This document shows, piece by piece, positions 44,953-64,000 of a stretch of 64,000 nt of DNA. The stretch lies in IMG/VR virus record IMGVR_UViG_3300013125_000002. One strand, 5' to 3'. The translations under genes were made by a program, and so were the position numbers. The notes under the pieces were generated by a model. The model had not been told where the DNA came from and made no database searches. It saw nothing but the letters and a program-made list of their open reading frames with translations. This DNA is from a virus. How positions within the stretch are numbered: position 1 is the first letter of the stretch; every line of letters starts with the position of its first letter.

Positions 44953-46398
44953 CTACGACGGCATCTGACCGATGTTGATCATGCGGAGCCACTTCTTCGG
45001 CGCGAACATGATCGGGGTCCCGTAGAGCAGGATCATCCAGCGGTAGGCCGGAGCCAGAACCGCCAGGTCGAGCCGCATCATCGGGGCCAGCTGCCGGAAG
45101 GTGAGGACGTTCGGGGTCAGCTCACCCATGTAGGCGATGCTGGTGAACGACAGGAGGAAGTTCACGTCGTTCACCACGGTGTTGCCACCAGCCGCCTGCG
45201 AAGCTGCCGGAACCTGCATGATCAGGCTGTAGGAAGCTGCACCAGTCGGGACTGCCGCACCCGATGCCATGGGGGCTGTGCGGTAGATGCGGAAGAACTC
45301 GGTCGGGAAGGCACCGATAGCTGCCGCATTGGTCAGGGTGACTGCCACATGCACGCCAGCGTCCTTGTTGACCTGGGTGACATCCTGAACCGCCGCCATG
45401 ACCGGAGAGAAGGCCGACTCACCGAAGCGGTTGCAGGCTGTGCAGACGTAGGCGTAGGAGTTGGTGCCAGCAGCGGCGTTCTTGTTGAAGTCACCGTCCA
45501 CACCAGCCACACCAGTGGTGATCTGCTGCGGAACCGCCGGAGCGTTCGCATGTGTGGCTGCCGACGGTGGGCTCGGAAGCCGACGGATGAAGACATCCGG
45601 GTTGAACTCGATGGTCCCGGCTTGGGTTGCCATCGAGGTGACTGCCTGCCCGATGGTTCCATTGACAGGAGCCGGCAGGTTGATCCGCTCACGCGGATAC
45701 ATCGTCTTGACGAGATCACTCAGAACCCGGGTGCCCAGGAACAGATCCGTTGGGTAGCCGTAGTTCTCGATGATCATGTTCGAAGCTTCCTCGATGTCAG
45801 CTTCCTGCATCGGCTGACCCTCGAGATCGACGAACGAGGTGGCATCGACCAGGGCATCGAGACCATCCCACTGCTCACTCTCGCCGTCGAAAGCAAGCGA
45901 GCTGTCAGCAGTGAAGAGAGCGTTCTCGACACGCTCGAGAAGCCAGAGGATGCCGTTCTGGTTCTCGAGTGCGATCACATCCCAATGCGCCGGGTGAACC
46001 AGCGTGGCTGGATGGGTCACTTCCCTCGTGGTCCCGAGGAACTTCACGAGCTGCGTGCGTCTGGCGTAGTTGCTGTCTGTGCTGGGAGGAAGCTCTCCTT
46101 CCTGCGTGAACGCAAACGCGCCATTGGTGCCGTAGTCGATCAGCTGATTGTACTCCTCAACCGTCGAGTAGGCAGGGCTCTTCGGGATCTTCTTCCAGAA
46201 CTTGATGTGAGAGTTGGAGTACGTCACCACCTTGAGGCTGGCCTCGAGCGACTCCACACGGAGAGCGGAGCCACCCGTCTGGTTGGTCAGCTGATAGCCG
46301 GCCTCAAGAGCCTTCGACAACTCGGCCACATCCATGGCGGGTGCGGAACCGAAGCCGTTCAGCCCTTCGTAGTGACGCAGCGAAATCTGTCCGTACAT
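44953..46398 (-). CDS. Major capsid protein (SPO1/Twort-like)
   Basis: ELSKALEAGY...GGSALRVESLE...STVEEYNQ...QLAPMMRLDLA...LYGTP. AAGGAGG RBS and strongly biased codons. Confidence 0.93.
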   Translation of the reverse strand: MYGQISLRHYEGLNGFGSAPAMDVAELSKALEAGYQLTNQTGGSALRVESLEASLKVVTYSNSHIKFWKKIPKSPAYSTVEEYNQLIDYGTNGAFAFTQEGELPPSTDSNYARRTQLVKFLGTTREVTHPATLVHPAHWDVIALENQNGILWLLERVENALFTADSSLAFDGESEQWDGLDALVDATSFVDLEGQPMQEADIEEASNMIIENYGYPTDLFLGTRVLSDLVKTMYPRERINLPAPVNGTIGQAVTSMATQAGTIEFNPDVFIRRLPSPPSAATHANAPAVPQQITTGVAGVDGDFNKNAAAGTNSYAYVCTACNRFGESAFSPVMAAVQDVTQVNKDAGVHVAVTLTNAAAIGAFPTEFFRIYRTAPMASGAAVPTGAASYSLIMQVPAASQAAGGNTVVNDVNFLLSFTSIAYMGELTPNVLTFRQLAPMMRLDLAVLAPAYRWMILLYGTPIMFAPKKWLRMINIGQMPS

Positions 46399-46438
46399 GT
46401 GATCCTCCTTCGCTTTCTGCGTCTGGGTTGTTGGCGGC

Positions 46439-47437
46439 TTAGCCCGCCTGGAAGCTCTTCATCACGAGATCTTCGACCGCCGGTCCCATCTGGCCGGTCA
46501 TCTCGAACTTGATCACGTCAAGCGAGTTCAGCTTGCCCTTCTCGACGAGATCACCCATGCGGTCCAGAACCTGGGCCTTGGTGAGCTGCTGCTCGCCCTG
46601 GCTCTTGCTCAGAACCTGCAGGTTTGGGCGGCCTGGTGCCGGGGCCACACGCATCTGGGACTTGGGGGCGCCAGCCGGAGCTTGAGCGATCTGCTCCTGC
46701 TGCTGGATCGTCCCCTGGATGCCGTGACCGATGTTGACGATGGCATCAGCCAGGCTCTTGTTGAACTCGCCCTGGTTGCTGGCGAACTCAGTGAGGGCGC
46801 CAAGAACCCGGCTGGTCACGTGGTCCGTGACCTGCTTGGTCACACGAGCCTCGAGCCCCTGCAGACCAGCAGCGAAGGACTTCGCGAACTCCGACAGGAA
46901 CTCGCTGACCTCGATCCCCTTGCGCAGGGTCTCGTTGGCTGCGACTTCGGACTGGAGAGACTTCCCGAACATCTCGTCTTCGGGCTCGTCATCGTCCTTC
47001 TTGTCCTTGTCGTCCTTCTTCTTGTCGTCCTTCTTGTCCTTGTCGTCCTTCTTGTCCTTGTCGTCGTCCTTGCCACCAGCCATGAATGGCGGCAGCTCGT
47101 CCTGACCCTTCGAGACTTCGCTGTGCTCGAGATCGCTCTTCAGAAGTGCAACCTCTTGCGGGGTCAGCGGCTGGCCCTTCATGACCTTCTCGGCGATGGA
47201 CTTGCGGACCTTCTTGGCGCCACCGTTGTAGTCGGTTCCGCCACCAGTGATGCTGTCATCCCAGCTGTCACCGATCTGGTCCTTGGTGCTCCCTGCCCAG
47301 CTCGAGACCTCGCTGTTGGGACCGGTGCAGATCTGCGACTTGTTCATGTCCGTCTGCTCCCCGGTCTCACCCTTGGCGAGAGCCTCCAGTCGAGCCAGGG
47401 ACTTGAAGAAGTCGTGCTGCGTGATCTTGTCGGACAT
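46439..47437 (-). CDS. Capsid scaffolding protein
   Basis: Lies between protease and capsid. Charged and helical, with a DDKDKK repeat and ~15 hydrophobic-x-K[S/A/G] sites. Start placed at ATG 47437 (GGGAG RBS). Confidence 0.75.
   Translation of the reverse strand: MSDKITQHDFFKSLARLEALAKGETGEQTDMNKSQICTGPNSEVSSWAGSTKDQIGDSWDDSITGGGTDYNGGAKKVRKSIAEKVMKGQPLTPQEVALLKSDLEHSEVSKGQDELPPFMAGGKDDDKDKKDDKDKKDDKKKDDKDKKDDDEPEDEMFGKSLQSEVAANETLRKGIEVSEFLSEFAKSFAAGLQGLEARVTKQVTDHVTSRVLGALTEFASNQGEFNKSLADAIVNIGHGIQGTIQQQEQIAQAPAGAPKSQMRVAPAPGRPNLQVLSKSQGEQQLTKAQVLDRMGDLVEKGKLNSLDVIKFEMTGQMGPAVEDLVMKSFQAG
46988..47072 (-). repeat. Imperfect 18-bp tandem repeat encoding DDKDKK in the scaffold
   Basis: gtccttcttgtccttgtc units on the plus strand. 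Confidence 0.8.
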
Positions 47438-47453
47438 CTTCTTGTCTCCCTTG

Positions 47454-48332
47454 CTAGTTCCGGTTGATCTCAAAGACCGCTTCAGTCAGGACGATGGACT
47501 CGGTTCTTGAAAGTCCACGTTCCCTGTGAAGCAGATCCACACACTCATCGAATGAGAGTGACTTGTTTGCCCACTTCTGATCTCTGACCTTGGAGTCAAG
47601 ACTTTCAGGAACCAACGCCGCACCACTGGAAGTCGTAAACGCCTTCTGCTCATCCTCAGTCTTGTTCAGATCGAGATCACCCTCGTTCGAGGGAGCCTCT
47701 ACGATGCCCTTCTTGCAGGCGCCACAAGGCTTCTTGCAAACGCAAGCGACCGACTTTCCAAGTGCAGTCTCCGGCATGATCAATCCGGATTGATCATGTA
47801 CACACCACATATCAGCTGGAACTGCGTTCAGAGACTTCACAACGTCCAGCCATGTGTGGGTGTTGATCGGTGCAGCAGTGATCGCGATATCCTGAATCCA
47901 GCACTTCAGGATGCGACGACCCGCCCGACGGATGACCTTGCCTTGGATAGAGAAACCGAGCTTGCGAGTAGAGCCTGAGGCAGCGAGAGCGTTGGCCAAC
48001 TCCCAGATCGCATCAGCGACCTTGTGGGTGCCAGGCTCCCAAAGAAAGCCCTTGGTCCAAAGACCTTCTTTGGTGATCCTTGCTTCAGTTGGCTGACCGA
48101 CTTTGTTCTCAAAACCGGGCTTGTGGTCGTTATTGTAGTACCCGTACTGCAGAAAGTACTCAGTATCGATCCCACGTTGCTCAACGATCTCAGTCTGAAG
48201 ATCTTCATCCTCGGTGGAGGAGATGCCCTGAACCCACCGAGTGTGGCCGAGAGTCTTCTTGGCTGTGTCGCTCTTGTTGATATCGAGCGGTAGCCAGAAG
48301 TCAAACTCGTTACTTTTGATGAGATCAATCAT
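47454..48332 (-). CDS. Prohead (maturation) protease
   Basis: GISSTEDEDLQTE...GYYNNDH...LGFSIQGKV...AITAAPINTHT are HK97-type/SPO1-like protease motifs. Confidence 0.88.
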   Translation of the reverse strand: MIDLIKSNEFDFWLPLDINKSDTAKKTLGHTRWVQGISSTEDEDLQTEIVEQRGIDTEYFLQYGYYNNDHKPGFENKVGQPTEARITKEGLWTKGFLWEPGTHKVADAIWELANALAASGSTRKLGFSIQGKVIRRAGRRILKCWIQDIAITAAPINTHTWLDVVKSLNAVPADMWCVHDQSGLIMPETALGKSVACVCKKPCGACKKGIVEAPSNEGDLDLNKTEDEQKAFTTSSGAALVPESLDSKVRDQKWANKSLSFDECVDLLHRERGLSRTESIVLTEAVFEINRN

Positions 48333-48426
48333 GCCCAGATACGCAAAGAGGGAGATCGGGCGGTAAAGCCCGTCTCCCTCTCTGGAGACCCTTTCGCTTT
48401 TCAGTCGATCCTATGCTCGACTGTCG

Positions 48427-48455
48427 AACCTACTGGTTCTAGAAATAGCTGTCAA
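48427..48455 (-). promoter_or_regulatory. Sigma70-type promoter TTGACA-17-TAGGTT with spacer motif TTCTAGAACCAG
   Basis: Consensus -35, intergenic, upstream of the protease-scaffold-capsid genes. Confidence 0.75.
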
Positions 48456-48475
48456 GGATCTTCGTGGGATACGAT

Positions 48476-48715
48476 CTAGCGGCGAGGTAAGTTGCTGACT
48501 TTGCGGACAAATAGACTAGGATTTGAAGCGAAAGACTTCATAAGGTCTTGGTCTAAGACGATAGGAATGGGGTGCTCTTTGCCGCAGCCTTTGCAGATCG
48601 CATAGGCTCGTTGACCTCGAAACACAATGGTCTTGTTTCGAATCTTGGTTGTATCGCCTTGGGACTTCATGATGACTTCACCACAACTACAAGCGTAGAA
48701 GTGCTCTATCATCAC
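48476..48715 (-). CDS. Small zinc-ribbon protein
   Basis: CSCG...CKGCG, directly upstream of the protease promoter. Confidence 0.6.
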   Translation of the reverse strand: MMIEHFYACSCGEVIMKSQGDTTKIRNKTIVFRGQRAYAICKGCGKEHPIPIVLDQDLMKSFASNPSLFVRKVSNLPRR

Positions 48716-49008
48716 AGTTTTCCATAACGGCGCTGAGCCTGCTCTGTCTGGGCTGTGTACTTGATCCTCTTCAGTTTCTCTATCTCAGCAGCGTCTGGTA
48801 CTGGCTTCTCCATCTCTGCTTCGATCTTGAGATCGCATATCTCCACGATGTCCTCAAGATTCTGACAGAGCTTGGCATGATGAAGTTGTGTCCCAGCAGC
48901 GGCTTTCGTCATGTCCTTTGATGGTGGAGGGAACTTACCTGTCTCCTCTGCATCCTTATGCTCATTGGCACGATCAATGTCATCCTCAGTGAAGAATCGC
49001 CCAGGCAT
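48712..49008 (-). CDS. Small hypothetical protein (candidate internal head protein)
   Basis: 98 aa with an AGGAG RBS. Contains DMTKA. Confidence 0.55.
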   Translation of the reverse strand: MPGRFFTEDDIDRANEHKDAEETGKFPPPSKDMTKAAAGTQLHHAKLCQNLEDIVEICDLKIEAEMEKPVPDAAEIEKLKRIKYTAQTEQAQRRYGKL

Positions 49009-49018
49009 GAATCTACTC

Positions 49019-52000: not shown

Positions 52001-53359
52001 CGACGCTGCTGTCTCTCGAATGTTGGATGCAGCAGCATAGATATCCTTCTCATCGATTCCCATGTCGAGAAGGTCCTGGTGATCAACAAGCACTGCGTGA
52101 AGACGCATCTCTTCTACGTCAGGATCCATGCCCTCTGGTTGTCTGGACGCATAGACCGCCTTCCGCTTCACATCTTCGATCTTCCTATCATAGGCATCGG
52201 TCTGTTTGAGTGTCTGAACCAGACTCTCAGCAGTCTTTTGCGCTGCTAGGATTTCTTTCTGATCCTTGATAGGAAGCTTAGGCTCCGAGGGGCGAATGGA
52301 AAGGTCCACAGCACCTGGCCCTGATAAGGCTTCACCACCACGCATCTGAGCCTCATGGATCTTGTCATCCATGATGTCGTGCATTGCGACCTGAACTTCC
52401 TGAGGGGTCTCAGCGTCAGCAAGCTTGTTGATATCCTCCCCCGAGAGGTTCATGTCGAGGTGCATCTCAGACGTGAAGTCTTTGACGTTGAGCTTGGGCT
52501 CTTTGCCCTGTTCAACTTGCTTCTTGGCGTCCTGCAGAGCCTCGATGGTCTTTCCCAGTACCTCTGATGCACGATCTCTCTTCTCTGACTTCATACGAGA
52601 AATGGCAAGATCGACTGCACCATCGATCTTCTTTTCATCCAGACCTGCTTGTCGAAGCTGTGTTGCGAGATGCTCCTTCACTCCCTCGAGCTGTTGGCCG
52701 AACAATGAAGCCGCATCTTTTCGGATACCCACGGCACCAAGCACATTGTCCTTCAGCCTCTTGGCTTGGCGCATCAGCTTTTTCTTGAGAGGAGCAGCCT
52801 CATCATGGATCTTCTTGATGTGTTCCTTGACCTTTGATTGCTTCTGAGTCGCCTCCATTTCCTCTGGAGTCGGAGGGGCCTTGGACTGCCGATCACCCAT
52901 CTTGGAAGCGAAGTGAAGATACTCTGCCCCCTTCCCACCAGTGACTCGTTCTTTGCCTGTCTCTGGATCAGTCTCTTTTTGTGGAGGCACTACACCAGCC
53001 CCACCCACAATAGCAGCCTTGTTGTCCGGTAGCCTGGCTACAAGAACGTGTCGATGAGACAGAGGTCCAGACTGAGGGGTACACCAGAAGGTACTCCCCA
53101 CTGGAACACTACTGATGACAATCTTGCCCTGCCCGTCCAGCTCAGGTCGGACTGGGGCTCCGTACCTGGCTCTGATCTTCGCGAAGTGGGCCTTCTCCTG
53201 GTGGCTGTACTGCTTCGCCTTCAGAAGGGGCTCCTCCGTTGGCAGCAGCTTCCTGCTCTTCTGAATCTCCTGCAGGCTCTTCCCAAGCAGATTGAGGAGT
53301 CGATTCGTCTGCGGGTCCACTACGATCAGTGGAATCAAGCTCGTCCTCTGCGTCAACAT
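49019..53359 (-). CDS. Large SNF2-like superfamily 2 helicase/ATPase protein (candidate injected protein)
   Basis: Motif I STAAGKT, II VVDEPQ, III LTATP..EN, V/VI AAGHNLQ...QAHGRAAR. Start placed at ATG 53359 (GAGGAG RBS). Confidence 0.75.
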   Translation of the reverse strand: MLTQRTSLIPLIVVDPQTNRLLNLLGKSLQEIQKSRKLLPTEEPLLKAKQYSHQEKAHFAKIRARYGAPVRPELDGQGKIVISSVPVGSTFWCTPQSGPLSHRHVLVARLPDNKAAIVGGAGVVPPQKETDPETGKERVTGGKGAEYLHFASKMGDRQSKAPPTPEEMEATQKQSKVKEHIKKIHDEAAPLKKKLMRQAKRLKDNVLGAVGIRKDAASLFGQQLEGVKEHLATQLRQAGLDEKKIDGAVDLAISRMKSEKRDRASEVLGKTIEALQDAKKQVEQGKEPKLNVKDFTSEMHLDMNLSGEDINKLADAETPQEVQVAMHDIMDDKIHEAQMRGGEALSGPGAVDLSIRPSEPKLPIKDQKEILAAQKTAESLVQTLKQTDAYDRKIEDVKRKAVYASRQPEGMDPDVEEMRLHAVLVDHQDLLDMGIDEKDIYAAASNIRETAASMPRETNLYKALASHWKDETGGNVKGYMNDGATSTLTGFVSGFAPGLGVPDLKKLTDSLGPELASYAMASYLHDLAEKGTTTISNPKTGKREKFTLEHYDQMVHDITMWNRVNQHAAEERALQRLGEIEDAQKVLREQMASGDIAVNDELIERLKKAGLSTRNVQKIDTEGLRDRMAALQMDNRYLDEQEKLVGETIGGLQTAAGFLYSLKSVRRGREANEDLRDLSMHVGGEGLSEGEQEKLVREKLKSLGIKSREEVAVETGPEGATIRFRGERLVPHLERWVQDAQKASKLNAIKDDTSQINEKTNDWIDKPLSKGGLGTAQEILPQLKSGEKLRGNQATDIRWLMQSGGGVITRSTAAGKTLTGLGYLGARVDQDMKGPNAGYRGVVIVPPAKVSEWVQEAAKFFDPEKISIVHWKPVLDKNKEPTGKFVDPKLPKQGEGRAYIVEVPEHYSKGQIDSLLKQTKHLKHAIFVMNHQSAAENNEYLERQMGGSGRPPNGIVVDEPQMLLGLRGRNRMNIGKRIFSIPSTHKVALTATPARENLREAYDLVRWSAQRPAVDEKGAPIYKETVNPKTKEPTGRMRPVYEKEAGRQVGKKSAQPRPFIPYEMFKQLEGGSTSAQRDLLARDIMDQIGPYVSGDDVKKVSFKINHHDVHVRRSDIQRVSQKQIEAQQAAVYKKHQDKAQKGGILTTEDGRRIKYAKISADDPAGRREQMKRARQNAENEIANLHRLNVDAADPDDNPKIQSLVHNLKAEIQGGVRIRHEGKTEKREKISGKKRKHIVVVSSPQQAAAVQHALDQAGIANVSMATSLRDAKNPELLTKDIKDGGQLKGTVVDARKKMWKEDSDRIDDKTGKYVKGEYKIPVVIIDKDTAAGHNLQEADTLHVVGAPDDAATLLQAHGRAARDPKLGDQLDIYTYRHTDSPFEHAHWDNLHRQMDFIRATSPGMVTKPQMMPEKRKEVLHAIREAKEKAASAPQKPVRKSLGLFVTA

Positions 53360-56300: not shown

Positions 56301-56999
56301 CTGATCAATAGGAAACTCTTTGGCCGGCTTGACTCGCTGACCCGATGCCCGCTGCTGTCGGTACTCTTCCTTCAGCCACTCCTTGAAGTTCTGCTTGAAG
56401 AATGGACTTGGGACCCAGCTACCTGTTTGCTCTGGAAACCGATTGAACGGACTCTCGGCATGGTAGCGAATCGACATGCGCCCACTCGGAGAATCGATCC
56501 CCGACTGGCCTCGTTCCCTCACCTCAAACCAGGGTCTGCCAAAAGCGTCGTTGACCGTTGCAGTTGACGACCGACGACGCATCCAATTCTCAACAGCCTC
56601 GTAAGAGGGCAGATGAGTTACCGCATCTCGTGCTTTCGTACTACGGTGCGGAAGGATGATGAAGGGGCGCTTTGCTGAGGGCCTGACAACGAGCTTCAGC
56701 TCAGGCTTACCCTCTGCTGAGCGGATGATCGACACATCATCAGCACCCGACTTGAGGGCTTTCTCTCGTGCATGGTGGAACGCTTGCTCTGCTGTGTGCC
56801 CTCGAGCAACTGAATCCGAATGAGTGGTAACGGAGTGCTCATCTGAAACAGCAGAGGCTGCCCACCCATGGTTCTTTGGATGTCTGAGATCAGAGTACTT
56901 GTAGTTCCAGCGGTCGTTTTTCCACCACCGCAGAACATACTTCCCGCCTAGATGTTCCCCTCGGTGAGCTTTGACTAAATCGATCCAAAGAGCGAACAC
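53142..56999 (-). CDS. Multidomain protein: sigma70-like domain, DNA topoisomerase IB and inorganic-pyrophosphatase-like (InPase) domain
   Basis: Sigma region 2: AVNSYDPQKGWRFSTY. TopoIB: MRAG, YVGK, TPKQFRTY, LGH...SYIDP. InPase: IAIENKKGS...YGY...GVDGDAVDVY...FDEDKVMLGF. Confidence 0.8.
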   Translation of the reverse strand: MFALWIDLVKAHRGEHLGGKYVLRWWKNDRWNYKYSDLRHPKNHGWAASAVSDEHSVTTHSDSVARGHTAEQAFHHAREKALKSGADDVSIIRSAEGKPELKLVVRPSAKRPFIILPHRSTKARDAVTHLPSYEAVENWMRRRSSTATVNDAFGRPWFEVRERGQSGIDSPSGRMSIRYHAESPFNRFPEQTGSWVPSPFFKQNFKEWLKEEYRQQRASGQRVKPAKEFPIDQVRPTTTALEQGRLTWHRVLEPYQATVKRQTGQPWQRRGLRWVRKLKASEAEQLKLCANIIREHFGLAVLSAQRQLTLYNVFDPGNMARLLGYYGGPGRAKKIEIDPDSPTLRAVKRAVNSYDPQKGWRFSTYLGHCLWWEHFKETKAILDEVKERRKFISTVDHSGRTMDVLDQVSREELPPGHEEIVSEGAHAQSAEDDLIAREESLQEWSGRQEDRLAKYVASDTADHERQVTSFLALHELKEIKSPEQAQAFIVHWQSEGGDEFVEPFEREVEEPKVQKLSGSEKHSWVTMVKQHPLLTAAERAAILTLAPKGDLQNIRPFTEVTAELATKHTREFPRPPTESQLVDLFLSAHQKLSGLPEFQAMQAKLSPVAKAIQLLQSLSMNRLSKALDILRKAQKGTRSQHYKYWRREGVPGSYRYYYRDHVGNVIQGTNAPVGHAHYDKKLGTPQLHRDEPDPIQHPQFFDPRSGRKMNRAVPEHAEWNPEYNKAVPLRMWGARWRADPNDETSHFEHGYYDSDLRERDELKFNQDNRHFDQQLPKVRKFYSSLMQSKQLAHRALGLMVALLDQAYMRAGRKIHEEERGTIGLTTLKVGNVKIKGNMATFSYVGKLGVDQQQVVVLDPKSMSILQELTLAEGKKRTDYLFSVPVRRGSQVKFQEIGYNKLRRTLATLGVTPKQFRTYHGTEIFSRAFERLLQQYSQGRITAKTLSGVTEEAALESAKALGHYIGKGEDRKAHAATALRSYIDPVAVKSLWMNAIDPDMQKAHPLMGRIKYEGMNIAIENKKGSYREWYDPNAKEHGRTKMNYDYGYVSGSKGVDGDAVDVYMGPHKNSERVFVIHQMKKPDFTEFDEDKVMLGFDSPEEAKAAYLRQYDNPKFFGSLTEMSLDDFKQKIKDKGLRGKMLKSIDEPEPGDDDEVPAHSVVADPPDRFDHEVGFSEWLHSHPLHESEHEWQYLNQMAGGKLDLPNPETDHEEPDDVDAEDELDSTDRSGPADESTPQSAWEEPAGDSEEQEAAANGGAPSEGEAVQPPGEGPLREDQSQVRSPSPT

Positions 57000-57779
57000 T
57001 TACCACTCCAGACTGCTCGTCATCTGGCCACGAATCTGGTCCAGCTGCTTGGCATCACGGTTGTCCGTGAGATCCATCAGAGACCCACGGACATCCTCGC
57101 GGATGTAGTCATCGTCCATCCAAGGTTCGTAGTCATAGTCCTCACCCCAGATCGACTTTGCCACTTGGAGCAGTTGATCTCGATTCAGACTGTCCAAGTT
57201 CTCGAGAAGCTGTTGAGCACCGGGAGCCTGGGTAGCCACAGGTTCTGGCCCAACTGCCTTGAAAACCTCCTGAGTGGCCTTTCGATAACCGTCTTTGTCA
57301 CCACGTAGAGCAAACCTACGAAGATAGAAGATCGGATTTCCCTCAAGAGGGATTTTGAAACCCAGTGCCTCCGACCAGACCTCATTCTGATGCTCCCTTC
57401 GATCCAGCGCACAAGGTTCTTCAAATGGATGCTTCTCGCCTCGAAACCGAAGAGGATAGGTCAGACGCTTTTCGTCCAGATCACCCTCGTAGTCCTCGTC
57501 CGTATTCACAGGTGAGACCTGGGCACCCCCTACCGAAATTGAAGGACCAGACTTGCCAAAACTTGCCAGCTTGTCTTCGGCTTCTGATTCCTTGTCGGCA
57601 TCAGCAATCTGAGCATCCTCGTCTACACCATCTCCGTTGTCGTCCCCAGTGTCACCTGCGTCAGCTTGAGACTCTTTGGCATCCTGTTGCTTCATCTGAA
57701 GCTCTTCAGGATCACCACCACGAAACTCTCCCTCGCTCTTTGCAAGTAGCTCATTCATGGCATCGAGGATCGACATCAC
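57000..57779 (-). CDS. Acidic hypothetical protein (candidate internal head protein)
   Basis: 259 aa with LLAKS and FGKS sites near the N-terminus. Confidence 0.6.
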   Translation of the reverse strand: MMSILDAMNELLAKSEGEFRGGDPEELQMKQQDAKESQADAGDTGDDNGDGVDEDAQIADADKESEAEDKLASFGKSGPSISVGGAQVSPVNTDEDYEGDLDEKRLTYPLRFRGEKHPFEEPCALDRREHQNEVWSEALGFKIPLEGNPIFYLRRFALRGDKDGYRKATQEVFKAVGPEPVATQAPGAQQLLENLDSLNRDQLLQVAKSIWGEDYDYEPWMDDDYIREDVRGSLMDLTDNRDAKQLDQIRGQMTSSLEW

Positions 57780-58679
57780 TCACACCTCAGGGAAAGCTTC
57801 CTCAGGTCGCAACAGAGTGAAGCGACCCATATCATTCCAACCCCAACCAGGGGGCACGTATCTCAAACGCCCAAAGCAGTGTGGGTGCAGCGGAGGCACC
57901 ACCGGCTTGGCATGCAATCTCCAAGGTCTCTGGTAATTCGTTCCCTCATTCTCCAACAGCTCCTTGAGCTTGAAGATCTTTGGGTTCCCAGTCTTGGGAT
58001 CGTAATAGATTCGCCGACAGTCATCACACATATCGGCATCATGTACAATAGCCACATCACTGTCGATCCCATCAGAGTCAGCGTAGATACCCTCCTTCTG
58101 AGAGATCGCAGTCATCACTCCACGCTGCTTAGCTGTGTGCAACTCTGTAGCAGCCAACCTCTCCCAGTTCCGATGAGGTTCCTTCAGAGCCTCCACTAGC
58201 TCTCTGGCTACTTGTCGATAAGTCTGATTTAGATCAGTACCAGTCTTGATCTTGTCAGAAATTGTAGACCTAACATGCCCTTCGGTTACTGTACGATGAG
58301 TCGCTTGTGCAAGTCTCTGGTAGAGACCATTCTTGATGTCGTCCATCAGACTGCGAAACTCAGTCTGAGCCGACAGCTCTGCCGCTTTGATCTGCAGCTT
58401 ATCTACGTCCGTGTAGCGACCAGTTGCTACTTCCTGGAGCTGCTTCCAGGTGAGCTTCTTGAACTCGGCCTCCTTGAGCAGAGATTGAAGCTTCCCAAGG
58501 ACGTAAGCATAGCGAATAGCTGATGCATTAACATCCATCGGAAGCTTACCGCTGGCCTTCAGATCATGGAGATCCTTCTCAGTGATCTCCTGATCCCCAA
58601 ACATCCTCCACATGAGCCATGTGGTGTGACAACGGATGATCTCGGCCAGCTTCTCAATCTGTGCTCTGGAGAGAACCAT
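57780..58679 (-). CDS. MuF-like head morphogenesis/minor head protein
   Basis: WERLAATELH...CDDC...PPLHPHC is the MuF-type signature. Lies in the portal-protease interval. Confidence 0.8.
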   Translation of the reverse strand: MVLSRAQIEKLAEIIRCHTTWLMWRMFGDQEITEKDLHDLKASGKLPMDVNASAIRYAYVLGKLQSLLKEAEFKKLTWKQLQEVATGRYTDVDKLQIKAAELSAQTEFRSLMDDIKNGLYQRLAQATHRTVTEGHVRSTISDKIKTGTDLNQTYRQVARELVEALKEPHRNWERLAATELHTAKQRGVMTAISQKEGIYADSDGIDSDVAIVHDADMCDDCRRIYYDPKTGNPKIFKLKELLENEGTNYQRPWRLHAKPVVPPLHPHCFGRLRYVPPGWGWNDMGRFTLLRPEEAFPEV

Positions 58680-58683
58680 GCAC

Positions 58684-59895
58684 CTAGCGGCTCACCATCA
58701 GAGGTTGTGAGAGACGCTTCTTTCTGTGCTCCGTGTCGAGTTTGGCTTCAGCTCTGTCCACCCCTAGGTGAGGCACTCCGGTCGGCTTTTGCTTCAAAAG
58801 CTCCTCAACTTCCTCCTTGCCACCATAACCATAGTCCTTCTTGAGATCATCAGAACTCTTCTTGATCTCAATGTAGAGCTGTGGTTGGGTACTTGGGGTT
58901 GAGGGCATGACCCCATTGATCTGTCCTTCTGTGACACCCGGAAGGACCTGTGACTTGAGGACTCGGCGTGGATCTTCTTCGGTGAAAACAAAGAGCTTGG
59001 AACCCGTCGGTTGGCTAGCTGGAGCTAGGCGGCGAGGACCAATCATATCTGGGCGAATCATCGTACTCTCCTGTGACTTCTCTGTTGTCTCAGCAACAGT
59101 GAGACTGTGGATCTTGGACGAACCATCACCATCAAACCCGAACAGGTTTCTCTCGCCCCTCTCATGCCCCCAGTCTTCGATCTTCAAACCACGAGAGCAT
59201 CCCCAATCACCTAGCTTCTTCAGCTCCTCTAGAAGTGGCTTCAGTTGTTCAGCAGCTTGGGGACTGACTACCATCTCGATCTTATACTGCTTACCATGCA
59301 GCGACTTGACGAAGAGATCATCGATAGAAAGAGACTTCGATGCATCGATCTCTTCACCCCAATTCCCTGCATGAAGAGCATGGAACTGCTGACGGGAGCT
59401 AGAGGGCACTGAGCTATTCTTGTAGAGATGCGGATTGGCCTTGTAGTGCAAGATCCAATCACGATGGTGCTGCTCCGTGTCCTGTACACCCTGACCTTCG
59501 AGATGCTGAATTGTCGACGAGGCCTGGTGGTACTTCTTGAGTGATTGATCTGCTCTGGCAGGATCGTTATTGAGGGTGTGGTAGAGATAGTAGTGGCGAG
59601 CGTGCCCCTGAATAGCCCTAGCTGCTGCTAGTTGGTGACCTGGTGAGGAGACATCAGGGCCTTTGATCTTCACCGATGGCTTCTCTTGAGACGAGAACGT
59701 TGGTGCTGGCTTCAGGGAAGCTTCACTCATGCGGGGGGCAGCCACGGTATCTTCGTGACCCGTCACGGCTGAGGGTTGGGCACTACGCTTCGCCACCATG
59801 GTTGCAGCATCAGCAGCTTTGACCAACGTACCCTGATCCCACAGGTCACCAGCATCCCCAATCCGGAACAGCATCGCATCGAGAAAAAGCTGCAT
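58684..59895 (-). CDS. Hypothetical protein (candidate internal head protein)
   Basis: 403 aa with LVKA, FVKS, VLKS and IKKS sites. Confidence 0.6.
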   Translation of the reverse strand: MQLFLDAMLFRIGDAGDLWDQGTLVKAADAATMVAKRSAQPSAVTGHEDTVAAPRMSEASLKPAPTFSSQEKPSVKIKGPDVSSPGHQLAAARAIQGHARHYYLYHTLNNDPARADQSLKKYHQASSTIQHLEGQGVQDTEQHHRDWILHYKANPHLYKNSSVPSSSRQQFHALHAGNWGEEIDASKSLSIDDLFVKSLHGKQYKIEMVVSPQAAEQLKPLLEELKKLGDWGCSRGLKIEDWGHERGERNLFGFDGDGSSKIHSLTVAETTEKSQESTMIRPDMIGPRRLAPASQPTGSKLFVFTEEDPRRVLKSQVLPGVTEGQINGVMPSTPSTQPQLYIEIKKSSDDLKKDYGYGGKEEVEELLKQKPTGVPHLGVDRAEAKLDTEHRKKRLSQPLMVSR

Positions 59896-59898
59896 GAC

Positions 59899-60090
59899 CT
59901 ACTTCCTTCCCTGAAGCTGGAGTAGTGCTATCGAAAGAGCCGGTCCCCCATCCAGCAGAAAACGAACAGCATCTGGCTCTGGCATGTGGTAGTCCTCGAC
60001 CAGCATTCGAAGGACACGTTTGCCCTCAAGGGACATACCTGCTGCACCCTTCTTGAGCTGGACCCGACCTGAAACTGTGTTACTCGTCAC
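59899..60090 (-). CDS. Small hypothetical protein
   Basis: Fills the gap in a tightly packed operon. GTG start at 60090 is assumed. Confidence 0.45.
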   Translation of the reverse strand: MTSNTVSGRVQLKKGAAGMSLEGKRVLRMLVEDYHMPEPDAVRFLLDGGPALSIALLQLQGRK

Positions 60091-60319
60091 GGCCACCGGC
60101 CAGTACCTCAGCAATCTCATTCGTCATACTGCTCATCATAAGATCGAATGAGTCGTTGACGAATGCTGCCAAATGAGATGCTGCCTCATTCTCATCTGGC
60201 AGTACGGCATCTTCGTGATCATGCGACTTCTTGAGTTTTGCAACTGCCAACTCAAGAGACTTGATCACCTCATCAGTGCCCATGCCTTCAGGCACCTGAA
60301 TCTTGACCTGGGATGGCAC
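60080..60319 (-). CDS. Small hypothetical protein
   Basis: 79 aa with VIKS and LKKS sites, abutting its neighbours. Confidence 0.55.
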   Translation of the reverse strand: MPSQVKIQVPEGMGTDEVIKSLELAVAKLKKSHDHEDAVLPDENEAASHLAAFVNDSFDLMMSSMTNEIAEVLAGGRDE

Positions 60320-60784
60320 TTAGTCTCTGCTCGTGTGCCGAAATGGAACGCTGCCACCGCCTCTGCCAGCGTTCCAGTTCAACTCCTCGTTCATATGTCG
60401 CAGTACACGAAGAGCTACCAGGCCGCGCTCCTCTTCTGTGAGTCTGGCCATGGTACCGGCGATCTTCGGATCTACGAGCTGGAACTTCTGGGGAAGAATG
60501 AGAGTCAGAAGACCCTGCTCGAAGCTGGTCAGATTCCCACCGTCCTCTGCCTTGTGGATAAGAGAGACGACTTCCTGGGCCACGAACTCCGTGTCAAGTC
60601 GACCATCTGGATACCGACGAAGAGGTGTGCAGCCTTCGTTGCGCATGAGCAACGAATCTTGCTGTGGCGTCCGGTAGCTAACTGGGTGAGTGACTCCCTC
60701 ACGGTAGCTTGTGGACTTCACCACAGTCTCTTCATCACGACGAAGATTGAGAGGCACTCTGCCTGCGAATGGGTTGTTACTCAT
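60320..60784 (-). CDS. Hypothetical protein
   Basis: 154 aa with an AGGAG RBS and VVKS, IHKA sites. Confidence 0.6.
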   Translation of the reverse strand: MSNNPFAGRVPLNLRRDEETVVKSTSYREGVTHPVSYRTPQQDSLLMRNEGCTPLRRYPDGRLDTEFVAQEVVSLIHKAEDGGNLTSFEQGLLTLILPQKFQLVDPKIAGTMARLTEEERGLVALRVLRHMNEELNWNAGRGGGSVPFRHTSRD

Positions 60785-60793
60785 CTTGATCTC

Positions 60794-62077
60794 CTACATA
60801 GCCACCCAAAGACTGAGACTCTTCTCCGTCTTCTTGGCCTGTTCACGTTCACGTTCACGAAGCCGTTCTTTCCGAATCACGTCCTTCTGTTTGGCTTGAG
60901 CCGGCTTCAGTCCTTCCTCATAGGCAGCATGAGCTGTCTCTGATCCCTTCACACCCTCACGACGCCTATCCATGAAAGACTGGAGATCTCCGATGCTCAC
61001 CACCCGCGCGATCTTCTTCCCACTACCCTCTTCTGCCATCCGATGATGAATCTCACTTCTTCTGGTTGCATGGGCCTGGAGGAGCTGCTGCTCAAAAGCA
61101 CGAGCATCCTTGGCAGAAAGACCAAGGGCTTGAGTCTCAGCCTCATTCGTAGGTATCCCTGCCCGAACCAGGTGAGTCTTGTACTTCTCGCGAAGCTCCT
61201 TGAGAGCGGCCTCTTCATTCTTGGCTTCGCGATTCGACTCTCGCTCTCGCCTCTCGACAGTCGAGACCCCCTCAGCCTTGATCCTCTCTTCGGCTGCTCT
61301 TGTAGAGACTGCTTGCTTGGCTTCATGTTCACGAACCAGACGCTTCTCTTCCTCTGTTCTCTGGTGGGGCTCTTTCTTGAGCGCTTGCTTCAGCGTCTTA
61401 CCAAGAGCCTTCTCGTGCTCTTTCCGGAGCTGGGAGCCCTCTCCAGGCTTCGGAGGGGCAAACTTGCCGACTACCTTCCGAACGACTACATGGTGCTGTT
61501 CAAAGCACTCTGGGCAGAGCTTCTGTGCAACAGCTGCTGGGTCTGGGGGGTCGATGGATTCCCGCTGCCCAGCCTTGGGGCCTTGTGTGTGAAGAAGAGT
61601 GACCGCAGTCTTCCGTTCTGTGACCTCTTCCACTCGGGTCTTGTTCCCCGTTGCAGGGTTCTCGATCTCTCTGACTTCAACTGTGGGCTTGTTGTGCTCA
61701 GGAAGAACAATCGCCTTGCAAGATCGACAGAAGTAGGATGGCCAGTGGCTTGATGTCTGTGCCTGGATGAACGCACGGGCACTGCGCTTGTCCTCTCTAG
61801 TCTTGGGAGAACGAAGACGCATCACCTGTTGGAACTCCTTTGGAAGTTCCTTCTTTCCAGGAACGATCTCCACTTGGACATCACCATGATCCGACGATAG
61901 ATGCGGAACATCCATCGCATTGGTGACAACCAAGGGCGGACTCTTCCCTGGGTAGATCTTCTCCCCAGTCACTGACAGATAGTACCGACCTCCCCGAGGG
62001 CCTGTCTGGTTCGGCTCTTTTTTGGCCTTCAGCAGGTCTACAGAGAGATCAAACAGTTGTGTAGCTGTGAGCAGCAT
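60794..62077 (-). CDS. Basic hypothetical protein with split zinc ribbon (candidate internal head protein)
   Basis: N-terminal DLLKA then GPRGGRYY. CRSC...CPEC. C-terminal EKSLSLWV. Confidence 0.6.
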   Translation of the reverse strand: MLLTATQLFDLSVDLLKAKKEPNQTGPRGGRYYLSVTGEKIYPGKSPPLVVTNAMDVPHLSSDHGDVQVEIVPGKKELPKEFQQVMRLRSPKTREDKRSARAFIQAQTSSHWPSYFCRSCKAIVLPEHNKPTVEVREIENPATGNKTRVEEVTERKTAVTLLHTQGPKAGQRESIDPPDPAAVAQKLCPECFEQHHVVVRKVVGKFAPPKPGEGSQLRKEHEKALGKTLKQALKKEPHQRTEEEKRLVREHEAKQAVSTRAAEERIKAEGVSTVERRERESNREAKNEEAALKELREKYKTHLVRAGIPTNEAETQALGLSAKDARAFEQQLLQAHATRRSEIHHRMAEEGSGKKIARVVSIGDLQSFMDRRREGVKGSETAHAAYEEGLKPAQAKQKDVIRKERLREREREQAKKTEKSLSLWVAM

Positions 62078-62081
62078 CAGA

Positions 62082-63068
62082 TCACCCGCAGCGCGGACAC
62101 CTCATGGTGTTGTCGCTTTTCTTCACCATCTGCCCACCACAACTCTTGCAGCACTGTGACTTGTTGATGACGCAGGTTGGGCACTCACCAAAGCTCTTGG
62201 CGAATGCACGACCGCAAGCTCCACACCTGATGTGCTCATGGGCCTTGGCGATCCGATGGGTACGCTCCGCCTCATCCTGCTTCAGCTCGTCGATGAGCTG
62301 GGGAGTGAGTGGACCTGTTGCAAGAGCCGAGATGTCCTTGGTGACAAGAGCACTACCCGACTCGAACGTTGAGCGGTGAGCAAGTGCTCGAGGGAGACGA
62401 GGCACCGAACGGGCTGTCACCGCCTTCTCAAGATCCGATTTCTCCACTGCCTTACTGATCTCCATCAGCTCATCGAAAGACTTGTTCATGGACTTTTCCT
62501 TGCTGAGGCCCGCCTGATGGAGCCCGATTGCAACAGCTTGCTTCTCACCACCTGGATGGCGGCCAAGGTGATGCATGTGGTGTGCGATCATCTCTGATGC
62601 CATCTCTTGTTTGGCATCTGTCTTCCTGGGCGGCTTCTTGATCTGACCATCCTTGGTCTTGTATCGAGCGATCCTGGAAAGGGAACCCTTAGGGTCCTTC
62701 GTTCCGTAGTGACGCCCATAGTGCTTCTCTGCTGCCTTTTCCAACTGATTCAGGCTGGCAGTCATACTCCCCGAAGCGACCGGAGCAGGTAGGGGCGTAG
62801 GTACAGCTCGTTGAAAGCCAAGATCCTTCATGTCCATGACCGTACCCTCAGCTATGGCTTTCTTTGCCGTCGGTGGGCTGACGATGTCTTTGACTTCTTT
62901 CGAAGGCAGAGCACCAAACTGATGAGAAGGCTTACCGACCGGTGTTCCGGCTCTCATAGCACCAGAACCCGAATAGGATGCTCCCTCTTTTCCGATCTTC
63001 ACTTCCCCCAGATATGCCTTCTGCTCATCCTCTGCCCAACTACCGAGGTGAATTGGCTGCTTTGGCAT
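62082..63068 (-). CDS. Hypothetical protein with C-terminal double zinc ribbon
   Basis: CGAC/CPTC/CKSC/CPRC, an EKQAVAIGL motif and many xxK[SA] sites. Start placed at ATG 63068 (GGAG RBS). Confidence 0.6.
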   Translation of the reverse strand: MPKQPIHLGSWAEDEQKAYLGEVKIGKEGASYSGSGAMRAGTPVGKPSHQFGALPSKEVKDIVSPPTAKKAIAEGTVMDMKDLGFQRAVPTPLPAPVASGSMTASLNQLEKAAEKHYGRHYGTKDPKGSLSRIARYKTKDGQIKKPPRKTDAKQEMASEMIAHHMHHLGRHPGGEKQAVAIGLHQAGLSKEKSMNKSFDELMEISKAVEKSDLEKAVTARSVPRLPRALAHRSTFESGSALVTKDISALATGPLTPQLIDELKQDEAERTHRIAKAHEHIRCGACGRAFAKSFGECPTCVINKSQCCKSCGGQMVKKSDNTMRCPRCG

Positions 63069-64000
63069 CGGTCTTACTCCGCTGCTGGTCGATGAAGTCG
63101 TCAAATGTGACGACGATCTCCCTCATGGACTTGTTGAAGTTCGCAGCATACTGCGGAGTCTCCGACTGCCCTGGAACTGGAGTGGCTCCTGGTGGAAGAC
63201 TTTGTTGACCAGGCACACCACCAACCTGCTGCTCTGCACCCTCAGGCAGCTGCCCTTGGGCTCCCGCCATCTGCTGTTGCTGTGCATCTTGCTGTTGCAT
63301 CTGTTGCTGCTGCATTGCCATCTGCTGCTGTTGTTGCTGTTGCTGGGCAAATAGCTGTAGCAGCTGCACGTAGGTCGGGTTGATCGGGACATCACCAAGA
63401 GGAATGTCAGGGAGATCAAGCGAGCGTCGCGCTTCATTGAGAGTCATGTAGCTCGCGATCTGCTCCTTGAGCATCTCATGCTTTTCCTGCTCCGAAAGCT
63501 CATCGAGGCCTACGAACTCAAACACGAAGTGGTCATCGATCTTGTCAATGACATGACGATTGATCATCTTCGCAATGAAGCGAAGCAGTGGCTTGAGGCC
63601 ACGATCACGAGAAGCCTTGAGCTTCCACTCCTGCGACGACTCAAAGAGCGGGGTCTGTTGCACACCACCATGAAGATCGAAGTTGATTTCAGCAGGGTCG
63701 ATCAGAAAGACACCACAGGTGATCTTGATCAAATACTCGATCCAAGAATTGAACTCCATGTCCTTGTTGGTCATCTGGAGCCCAATCCACTCGATACCCT
63801 CTGACTGAGTGATCGGTGTCTTCCATGCGTTCTCTACACCCGAGACTGAAGCAACCCACTGGCGACGAAACGCCTCCAGCTGATCTGGGGTCCAGTTGTC
63901 ACCCTTGAAGTTCAGGATGCCTTTTGGATGTGAACCCTGTGTGAAGTATCGCTTGTTGTACTCCTCCGCAAAGAGAAGAGAAGTCACAATGGTGATGAGC
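63040..64000 (-). CDS. Portal protein, C-terminal part (5' end outside the window)
   Basis: YNKRYFTQGSHPKGIL...KDMEFNSW...IDPAEINF...SRDRGLKPLL...MTLNEARR are SPO1/Twort-like portal motifs. Poly-Q tail. Confidence 0.9.
   Translation of the reverse strand, partial: LITIVTSLLFAEEYNKRYFTQGSHPKGILNFKGDNWTPDQLEAFRRQWVASVSGVENAWKTPITQSEGIEWIGLQMTNKDMEFNSWIEYLIKITCGVFLIDPAEINFDLHGGVQQTPLFESSQEWKLKASRDRGLKPLLRFIAKMINRHVIDKIDDHFVFEFVGLDELSEQEKHEMLKEQIASYMTLNEARRSLDLPDIPLGDVPINPTYVQLLQLFAQQQQQQQQMAMQQQQMQQQDAQQQQMAGAQGQLPEGAEQQVGGVPGQQSLPPGATPVPGQSETPQYAANFNKSMREIVVTFDDFIDQQRSKTDAKAANSPR

Follow-up and report, generated by a model that had tools for sequence, protein, structure and literature searches.

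A candidate lysine-directed prohead protease signal in the head genes and accessory genes of an uncultured large phage

In the virus record IMGVR_UViG_3300013125_000002 (IMG/VR) genes for a topoisomerase IB, a pyrophosphatase and an SNF2-type helicase are located in the middle of a head gene cluster, and the question arises whether these enzymes are addressed by the prohead protease in the same way as the capsid protein. We analyzed a stretch of 64,000 nucleotides (nt) of this record, which is referred to as the window. All genes of its region 44953-63999 are close-packed on the (-) strand and follow each other in the order of transcription as portal, eleven or twelve accessory genes, prohead protease, scaffold and major capsid protein, so that 14.6 kb (48476-63104) separate the portal from the protease. 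An initial annotation had read from these genes a cleavage code consisting of a hydrophobic residue, any residue and Lys, followed by Ser, Ala or Gly, and had proposed that the block encodes cargo proteins which are loaded into the prohead, trimmed there and injected with the DNA. In the following, Φ denotes a hydrophobic residue and an arrow the predicted cut; P1 to P5 are the residues preceding the cut and P1' and P2' those behind it. As explanation for the findings as a whole we favor, with fair but not high confidence, a Lys-specific prohead protease which trims the capsid protein, the scaffold, itself, the portal and packaged accessory enzymes. As part of this explanation, region 44953-63999 is probably the operon from which an uncultured large phage expresses its late head genes.

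Judged by homology, the head module appears to be a distant relative of the SPO1/A511/K (Herelleviridae) type, as its proteins match phrog_752, phrog_1028 and phrog_15087. The head proteins matched 782 phage records, nearly all of them Herelleviridae, and identities to SPO1-like and other Herelleviridae amounted to 41-46% for the capsid protein and about 42% for the protease. In IMG/VR at least 80 related uncultured contigs of up to 171 kb were found (capsid identity 42-84%), and in this clade portal and capsid gene lie 15-25 kb apart; single related loci are designated by numbers such as L012. The G+C content is about 54%. A scan of prokaryote genomes with the capsid protein returned no relative, so that there is no sign of a prophage and no host is pointed to.

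All motifs listed in the initial annotation were recovered. The maturation site of the capsid protein, ELSK29↓A30 (ELSK29↓ALEAGY, 46309-46323), belongs to a pattern L-x-K↓A-L-x-A-G which is conserved in the capsid N-termini of the relatives, SPO1 and CP-51 included, and its counterpart in phage 812 (5lii) is VVK↓SFQTGY. In a capsid chain of the phage 812 type which was deposited with 439 residues (9row/9rox/9roz), the first residue, directly behind the aligned lysine, corresponds to A30 (463 - 24 = 439), and the capsid protein of the A511/P100-like Listeria phage AG20 reads EDALK↓SFTTGY at the aligned position. The Lys↓Ser maturation of A511/K-type capsids, which the initial annotation had cited as known, therefore fits the sequences, with the deposited chain 9row and the sequence alignment as its basis. 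A literature search, itself incomplete, yielded no published lysine consensus and no N-terminomics for head proteins of Herelleviridae, although these may still be published.

The same motif saturates scaffold and protease. Expected numbers were derived from 500 shuffles which preserve the composition of each protein and thereby correct for its Lys content. For Φ-x-K-S, 10 sites were observed in the scaffold against 1.1 expected and five in the protease against 0.6, the latter being the candidate self-sites DLIK6↓S, DINK20↓S, DVVK166↓S and LGK193↓S (LIKS, INKS, VVKS and LGKS of the initial annotation) and additionally ANK257↓S. Across the scaffolds of 63 relatives the excess was significant in nearly all cases (SPO1: 11 vs 0.97; CP-51 too), and it also occurred in the relatives' proteases, being significant in most of them. 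The start of the scaffold gene was set at ATG 47437 as in the relatives; the longest open reading frame (ORF) begins at TTG 47473.

In an alignment of 48 proteases with 32-69% identity to the one of the window, His70 (within N-x-D-H-K), Ser128 (within G-F-S-I-Q-G-K) and the pair K166-S167, which closely follows the catalytic domain, were invariant, and K230 and S244-L245 were conserved in at least 90% of the sequences. This conservation suggests that His70 and Ser128 form the active site. Since the protease sequence had no match in the PDB, a structural model and a fold search were needed. The AlphaFold2 model comprises a confident catalytic domain (residues about 9-155, predicted local distance difference test score (pLDDT) mostly >85) and a likewise confident C-terminal helical hairpin (261-289), and self-sites fall in low-pLDDT linkers between the two. 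In Foldseek the best match of the model was T4 gp21 (5jbl; E 3e-4, prob 1.00, template modeling (TM) score 0.61 on target), followed by the proteases of Kaposi's sarcoma-associated herpesvirus, human cytomegalovirus, Epstein-Barr virus and herpes simplex virus, and the protease is accordingly predicted to have the T4 gp21/assemblin fold. Most likely, it cuts after Lys in [D/E]-x-Φ-x-K↓S/A-(Φ) where the chain is flexible. Residues about 228-292 of the protease (47454-47650), which follow a self-site, resemble the N-arm of the capsid protein (K↓A-L-E-A-G-Y ... E-S-L-E). This similarity is evident in SPO1-like phages and less pronounced in the window (EQK↓AFTTSSGAALVPESLDSK), and it suggests docking of this part in the shell in the manner of the capsid N-arm.

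The initial reading of the motif as a prohead-protease signal is borne out by the alignment of the capsid site with a solved mature N-terminus, the saturation of scaffold and protease and the invariance of K166-S167 in 48 sequences. By these comparisons, Φ-x-K↓S/A is well supported as the putative cutting signal of the prohead protease.

How far the signal extends into the accessory block was evaluated against the tail genes of the window. In the head block 39 Φ-x-K-S sites stood against 11.0 expected (z 8.9; equaled in 0 of 500 shuffles), compared to 17 against 15.3 in 27 tail genes, and the proposed enrichment over tail genes thus persists when Lys content is corrected for. The excess is confined largely to scaffold, protease and several small or disordered block proteins, among the latter the 340-aa (6 vs 1.1), the 403-aa (4 vs 1.05), the 259-aa (3 vs 0.3) and the 79-aa ORF (2 vs 0.19). 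Φ-x-K-A was equally enriched in the tail genes (43 vs 28 expected) and in the head block and is therefore not specific by itself, and Φ-x-K-G was not enriched in the window. A context matrix was trained on 376 K-S sites of the relatives' scaffolds and scored without P1 and P1'. Within 11 accessory ORFs it separated K-S from other lysines (mean -1.7 vs -4.8, p 0.0003) and K-A weakly (p 0.02); K-G in these ORFs was not separated, and in tail proteins there was no separation at all. Among 373 unselected K-S sites in 45 scaffolds, P3 was L/V/I/F/M in 80% and P2' L/Q/F/I/V in 82%, with acidic residues at P4-P5. These preferences lead to a fuller signal [D/E]-x-Φ-x-K↓S-Φ, in which Ala is accepted at P1'. 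Of the three P1' residues named initially, Ser appears to be strong and Ala moderate, and Gly is supported by the scaffolds only; for the cargo proteins Gly had to be rejected, as neither the shuffles nor the context matrix gave a signal.

In nine of 11 block ORFs the motif occurs within 43 residues of the N-terminus (K10 to K35; 1.8 expected), compared to five of 27 tail ORFs (3.7 expected; Fisher p 5e-4 between both groups). The near-terminal motifs DLVKA, LLAKS, DLLKA, TLVKA, LGKS/IQKS/LLKA and VRKS are all present, and the statement that most ORFs between portal and protease carry the motif near a terminus holds with the restriction that two of the 11 have no terminal signal. For the clade, dereplicated ORFs of at least 100 aa were searched for the motif in their first 42 residues. 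It was found in 95 of 177 ORFs upstream of the protease, with 24.6 expected from shuffling of the whole protein and 28.9 from shuffling within the N-terminus, and in 43 of 296 ORFs downstream of the capsid gene, with 33 expected (upstream vs downstream Fisher p 2.5e-19). Orthologs of the 154-aa, 427-aa, 259-aa and topoisomerase proteins retain the leader in spite of their diverged sequences. Leaders are also borne by gp27, gp28 and gp29 of CP-51, which are encoded upstream of its portal, and by the CP-51 portal. The portal of the window has a conserved C-terminal site NFNK↓S (63127-63141; FNKS of the initial annotation), followed by ..VVTFDDFID; the relatives' portals retain it as K↓S-x-x-x-Φ-TFDDF and additionally an N-terminal DY-x-x-Φ-x-K↓S/A. 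Upstream of FNK↓S, portal residues about 217-244 (63270-63350) form a glutamine-rich tract with Q runs broken by M and A.

A second signal, which is specific for the block, was detected at the C-terminus. Several unrelated block proteins terminate in K↓S-L-x-L-[FYW]-V, in the window the SNF2 protein (VRK1443↓SLGLFVTA at the very end, 49019-49057) and the 427-aa protein (Table 1). In relatives AKK↓SLYVTV, IKK↓SLSLYID.. and TKK↓SLTLYVED were found, the first and the last of them directly before the stop codon like ANK↓SLGLFVDLGGNKA of CP-51 gp28. The core [LIV]-x-[LIV]-[FYW]-[LIV] is present in the last 18 residues of 15 of 297 upstream ORFs and in none of 375 ORFs downstream of the capsid gene (p 4e-6), and 0.8% of the interior windows of the upstream ORFs contain it. 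The C-terminal tag may represent a removable docking strand.

The strongest evidence that the accessory proteins are likely substrates comes from the junctions of the 1285-aa protein, which contains a topoisomerase IB (residues 758-962, PF01028 E 6.6e-26) and an InPase pyrophosphatase domain (1006-1131, PF18823 E 2.9e-40, covering profile positions 11-135 of 135). Predicted sites lie five residues before and 10 residues after the InPase domain (Table 1). In the upstream column K-[S/A/G] occurs in nine of 13 relatives. In four relatives a separate gene starts at this junction or close to it, in two of these with the site itself (L028 MEK↓ARKL.., L025 VTEK↓A). The downstream column shows M-[IL]-K↓S/A/G in nine of 13 relatives. 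A model of residues 940-1200 gave a confident InPase fold with both flanking sites in segments of pLDDT <50 (57-63 and 195-227). A similar picture arises at the other end of the protein, where the 259-aa and the 1285-aa ORF share one frame and are divided only by TAA (57000-57002) with GTG immediately behind it: in L012, L005, L011, L044 and L041 a single ORF of 1430-1734 aa spans this region, and the fused ORFs of these five relatives have LEK↓A or LVK↓A aligned with LVK10↓A of the window. A processing site would be expected to give this pattern, in which the units are encoded separately in some cases and linked by the signal in others. Taken together, the comparison supports the accessory proteins as putative substrates of the protease.

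Further observations concern the same polyprotein. The TAA lies 10 codons upstream of the aligned LVK↓A and may divide two genuine genes with coupled restart, allow read-through or result from a sequencing error. Residues about 347-392 (55824-55961) include a weak stretch similar to sigma-70 region 2 (NCBIfam E 1e-4, far below the cut-offs; Atlas 0.87), and if this stretch is real, which is a lead only, a sigma-like module would belong to the processed polyprotein. Near the C-terminus an element FSEWLHSHPLH is located (53451-53483). F-S-x-W-[LIV]-H-x-x-P-[LIV]-H is conserved in every topoisomerase IB protein of the clade, mostly about 30 residues after Φ-x-K↓S, and forms the extreme C-terminus in L024, L025 and L028.

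Table 1. Head genes, accessory genes and predicted junction sites of the window, from the capsid gene to the portal gene.
Feature	Position	Strand	Characteristics
Major capsid protein	44953..46398	(-)	phrog_752 E 1.4e-98; SPO1 Gp6.1 (9vel) E 2.9e-110
Scaffolding protein	46439..47437	(-)	phrog_15087; 10 Φ-x-K-S sites and 6 with G or A
Prohead serine protease	47454..48332	(-)	phrog_1028 E 3.3e-47
79-aa zinc-ribbon protein	48476..48715	(-)	VIMK17↓S, DLMK60↓S; tail ..NPSLFVRK..
98-aa conserved small protein	48712..49008	(-)	DMTK35↓A; homologs in L007, L008
SNF2-type helicase-core protein, 1451 aa	49019..53374	(-)	PF00176 E 2e-7; core about residues 800-1400
Multi-domain 1285-aa protein	53142..56999	(-)	leader IDLVK10↓A; sites K610, K625, K632
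Predicted junction site KMLK1141↓S	53574..53588	(-)	10 residues after InPase domain
Predicted junction site DMQK1001↓A	53994..54008	(-)	5 residues before InPase domain
259-aa acidic protein	57000..57779	(-)	leader ..NELLAK14↓S
299-aa MuF/SPP1 gp7-like candidate head morphogenesis protein	57780..58679	(-)	Atlas lead, not Pfam-level
403-aa protein	58684..59895	(-)	leader ..GTLVK26↓A; internal LFVK↓S, RVLK↓S
Small conserved ORF	59899..60120	(-)	probable start internal Met near 60036; homologous small ORFs in L011, L012, L044
79-aa protein	60080..60319	(-)	EVIK20↓S and LKK31↓S
154-aa conserved block protein	60320..60784	(-)	leader ..ETVVK23↓S
427-aa Lys/Arg/Glu-rich protein	60794..62077	(-)	leader ..VDLLK17↓A; C-terminal tag TEK↓SLSLWVAM before the stop codon (60794-60832)
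340-aa block protein	62082..63104	(-)	Cys-rich, zinc-ribbon-like C-terminus; homologs in L025, L028, L082
Portal protein, C-terminal 319 residues	63040..63999	(-)	PF04860 E 1.2e-19; phrog portal families; gene exceeds window end

The 1451-aa SNF2 protein combines the N-terminal sites LLGK32↓S, IQK39↓S and LLK52↓A with its C-terminal tag and had no match in PHROGs, NCBIfam or cultured phages. Its N-terminus is conserved with L008, so that the upstream start looks real, and L007 and L008 end in the tags ..EPLSLFVRD and ..NPSLIVRN. The 1285-aa ORF ends in a part coding for an acidic tail of low complexity, and this 3' end shares 232 nt with the 5' end of the SNF2 ORF, which is read in a different frame (53142-53374); L007 and L008 have no such overlap. 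Immediately 5' of the protease gene, in the window as in most relatives, the zinc-ribbon protein (70-80 aa) is encoded, for which tblastn gave matches in 49 of 80 loci. It follows the pattern C-x-C-G-E-V-Φ-Φ-K↓S ... C-K-x-C, its relatives keep both sites and a tail P-x-L-[FY]-[LIV]-x-K, and the protein represents a conserved head-module component without a name.

Among the remaining ORFs, the six Φ-x-K-S sites of the 340-aa protein are all located in its C-terminal third. The homolog of the 427-aa protein in L082 has DLLK↓S and ends in IKK↓SVGLWMSV, and relatives' homologs of the 403-aa protein terminate in AKK↓SLYVTV or AKK↓SVPLLLSV. Homologs of the 154-aa protein occur in 13 loci, each with Φ-x-K↓S/A at residues about 17-25. 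The first site of the 79-aa protein at 60080-60319 is kept in L082 and L083, and the small ORF at 59899-60120 has no Ser/Ala site. In the Atlas, PF04233 was assigned to nine of the 30 nearest clusters of the 299-aa ORF (score 0.95). The ORF itself has no Pfam match, and for its relative in L031 the final 17 positions of the Phage_Mu_F profile match with E 0.0058, which does not reach the cut-off. In L005 (1011-3053; identical to L084, 6069-8111) the MuF-like protein has 680 aa compared to about 300 and contains an intein-like insert (PF14890 E 6.7e-6, below the cut-off). Pfam and PHROGs searches with seven small or medium block ORFs returned no match.

The motif which capsid, scaffold and protease have in common with the ends or junctions of most genes between portal and protease points to enzymes that are probably loaded into the head and trimmed there. 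The loading itself is suggested by the gene position, the InPase domain and the MuF-like neighbor. InPase domains are typical of phage polyvalent proteins, which are predicted to be packaged and injected (PMC5512222), and records of cultured phages label InPase-bearing proteins as "minor head protein", "virion structural protein" or "head/portal protein". Polyvalent proteins are characterized by at least two effector domains in a virion context, and the window has Topoisom_I and InPase in one ORF between portal and protease. From the initial cargo reading, the part which makes the block proteins substrates is therefore supported by comparison (clade-wide leaders, flanks of the InPase domain, gene boundaries), and the loading into the prohead is its more indirect part. 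Comparable processing has been described elsewhere: T4 gp21 cuts after (I/L)-x-E (PMC12991175), and gp245 of SPN3US cuts after A-x-E, with N-terminal propeptides on head and ejection proteins (PMC10052503).

A possible course of events is as follows. The accessory proteins would co-assemble into the prohead via leaders and tags, which would hold them in the scaffold core and would then be cut off. The protease would shorten the capsid protein by 29 residues, degrade the scaffold to 10-16 peptides, cleave its own chain behind the catalytic domain and in front of the C-terminal hairpin and trim the tail of the portal. Most accessory proteins would lose an N-terminal leader of 10-50 residues, and cleavage in its linkers would divide the polyprotein into an acidic part, a sigma-like part, topoisomerase IB and InPase pyrophosphatase. 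More speculatively, the mature enzymes, including the SNF2-type helicase, might stay in the head, enter the cell with the DNA and act on the incoming genome, where the handling of topology, the clearing of pyrophosphate or signal nucleotides and the removal of host proteins or defenses are conceivable roles.

Several points weigh against this course of events. The cargo code was read from sequence alone, in this phage and its relatives, and motif, enrichment, conservation, placement at termini, junctions and gene boundaries and the fold of the protease are computational observations. The N-terminal statistics hinge on the automatic choice of start codons, and the related sequences are not independent, although the ORFs were dereplicated. 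In the composition shuffles the two large enzymes show no overall excess of Φ-x-K-S, and the case for them depends on few terminal and junction sites. Φ-x-K-A is common in tail proteins as a helix-like pattern, so that a single K-A leader counts for little by itself. The motif is missing from the whole MuF-like ORF and from the N-terminus of the 340-aa ORF. A helicase of 160 kDa would have to unfold to traverse the tail tube. Finally, the portal adjoins the protease in cultured Herelleviridae; the block is therefore an addition, and those phages give no indication of its place in the virion.

It is also conceivable that the block proteins are true substrates which serve as assembly-core or scaffold-like helpers and are degraded and expelled at maturation like gp22, gp67 and gp68 of T4. 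The densest motifs indeed occur in small, charged or probably disordered proteins (the 340-aa, 259-aa and 79-aa ORFs), the 427-aa protein with its abundance of Lys, Arg and Glu is scaffold-like, and several block genes belong to the conserved core of the clade and are not variable add-ons. However, topoisomerase IB, InPase and SNF2 helicase have no sites within their catalytic domains but only at ends and junctions, which fits the release of intact enzymes and not their degradation, and in cultured phages the annotation of InPase-bearing proteins is that of virion proteins. We regard this explanation as unlikely for the block as a whole; it is plausible for the small charged proteins and not for enzymes with site-free catalytic domains.

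Less probable still, with a small chance only, is that the code is real for capsid, scaffold, protease and portal and that its occurrences in the accessory genes go back to composition, helix periodicity or shared ancestry, the block then consisting of ordinary non-virion genes in a late operon. The over-representation of Φ-x-K-A in tail proteins (43 vs 28) and the large enzymes without overall excess are compatible with it. Yet the N-terminal excess is about 3.5-fold over shuffles in the 177 dereplicated ORFs and lacking in the 296 control ORFs, the context score ties Ser at P1' to P3 and P2' in the block only, the sites match gene boundaries and domain junctions in relatives, and the C-terminal tag occurs in none of 375 control ORFs. 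An even more remote alternative, to which we give very little credit, takes the accessory lysine signal as a docking peptide and not as a cut site, read by a non-proteolytic partner such as scaffold or portal, or assigns it to a trypsin-like protease of the host. Leaders and C-terminal tags do resemble short docking peptides, in which the cuts are predictions, and the C-terminal part of the protease mimics the capsid N-arm, suggesting binding through such segments. The same motif, however, is the known kind of capsid maturation site and saturates the scaffold, which must be removed; moreover, docking and cutting are compatible, and the explanation preferred here, trimming of head proteins and packaged accessory enzymes by a Lys-specific protease, includes both.

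The nearest model for this trimming is T4, where one motif is common to capsid, scaffold, protease and the short N-terminal leaders of packaged and later injected proteins (IPI-III, Alt). As in the T4 internal proteins and Alt, the candidate cargo of the window shares the capsid motif beyond chance and carries a short N-terminal leader ending at the site, and the capsid-targeting sequences of T4 internal proteins resemble these leaders. T4 gp21 has the predicted fold of the window's protease and the same site layout with a hydrophobic P3, any P2 and a charged P1, but the charge at P1 is reversed, being Glu in T4 and Lys here. Unlike in T4, the candidate cargo includes large multi-domain enzymes with predicted internal cuts and additionally a C-terminal tag, which are known here from genes alone. 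For gp175 of phiKZ and gp245 of SPN3US, substrates are recognizable by a sequence logo with A-x-E at P3-P1; their N-terminal propeptides comprise 20-254 residues, the protease removes a C-terminal propeptide from itself, and internal head proteins are numerous (PMC10052503). These phages differ by their Glu specificity, genomes of >200 kb, another capsid lineage and cuts which were mapped by mass spectrometry. What seems to distinguish the window from T4 and from phiKZ/SPN3US is Lys specificity as a general code, the accessory block between portal and protease, junction processing of topoisomerase IB and InPase, the SNF2 candidate and the C-terminal tag. By analogy, the scheme may be seen as the lysine version of the one-motif protease address of T4 and phiKZ.

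Herelleviridae (SPO1 with gp3.2 protease and Gp6.1 capsid protein; A511, P100, K, 812; CP-51) possess homologous capsid proteins, proteases and scaffolds, the same Φ-x-K↓S/A capsid site and the same motif saturation of scaffold and protease. The arrangement of the window does not match that of the cultured representatives CP-51 and AG20, in which the portal gene is directly upstream of the protease gene. With the polyvalent proteins (Iyer, Burroughs, Anand, de Souza, Aravind 2017; PMC5512222) the window shares a multi-domain protein with InPase in a virion gene neighborhood; unlike in those proteins, its domains are separated by what appears to be the prohead protease's own signal, and in relatives the units are fused or are separate genes.

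Phage P1 packages DarB, an anti-restriction methyltransferase-helicase which has been proposed to travel in the head and to act on incoming DNA. The 1451-aa protein resembles DarB as a very large helicase-containing protein. Since it consists of an SNF2-related core only, without methyltransferase domain, sequence match to DarB or match in cultured phages, it was rejected as DarB-like and the analogy was dropped as membership; only the InPase domain matches a "DarB-like" PHROG.

A rule of this kind for the protease of a very large phage group, to which the therapeutic Staphylococcus and Listeria phages K, A511 and P100 belong, would make virion-delivered proteins predictable without proteomics. 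If the rule is true, tryptic proteomics misses the cuts, because trypsin also cuts after Lys. Foreign proteins could moreover be loaded into such capsids with the signal as a removable tag, as is practiced with the targeting sequence of T4, and packaged topoisomerase IB, pyrophosphatase and SNF2 helicase would be new early-acting phage enzymes. Protease specificity also matters for bacterial defenses which sense prohead proteases (PMC12991175). Extending the scheme to the whole group is a tentative step, which we consider possible but rather doubtful: all heads of the SPO1/Herelleviridae type may use a removable address of two parts, a leader ending in Φ-x-K↓S/A and a C-terminal strand K↓S-L-x-L-[FYW]-V, whose passengers in this clade would include a virion topoisomerase IB, a pyrophosphatase, a sigma-like module and an SNF2 helicase, which the capsid protease would free from polyproteins. 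In that case the sequence alone would suffice to read the injected proteome of any phage of this type, and the enzyme set of the clade would be reminiscent of the core enzymes in poxvirus virions.

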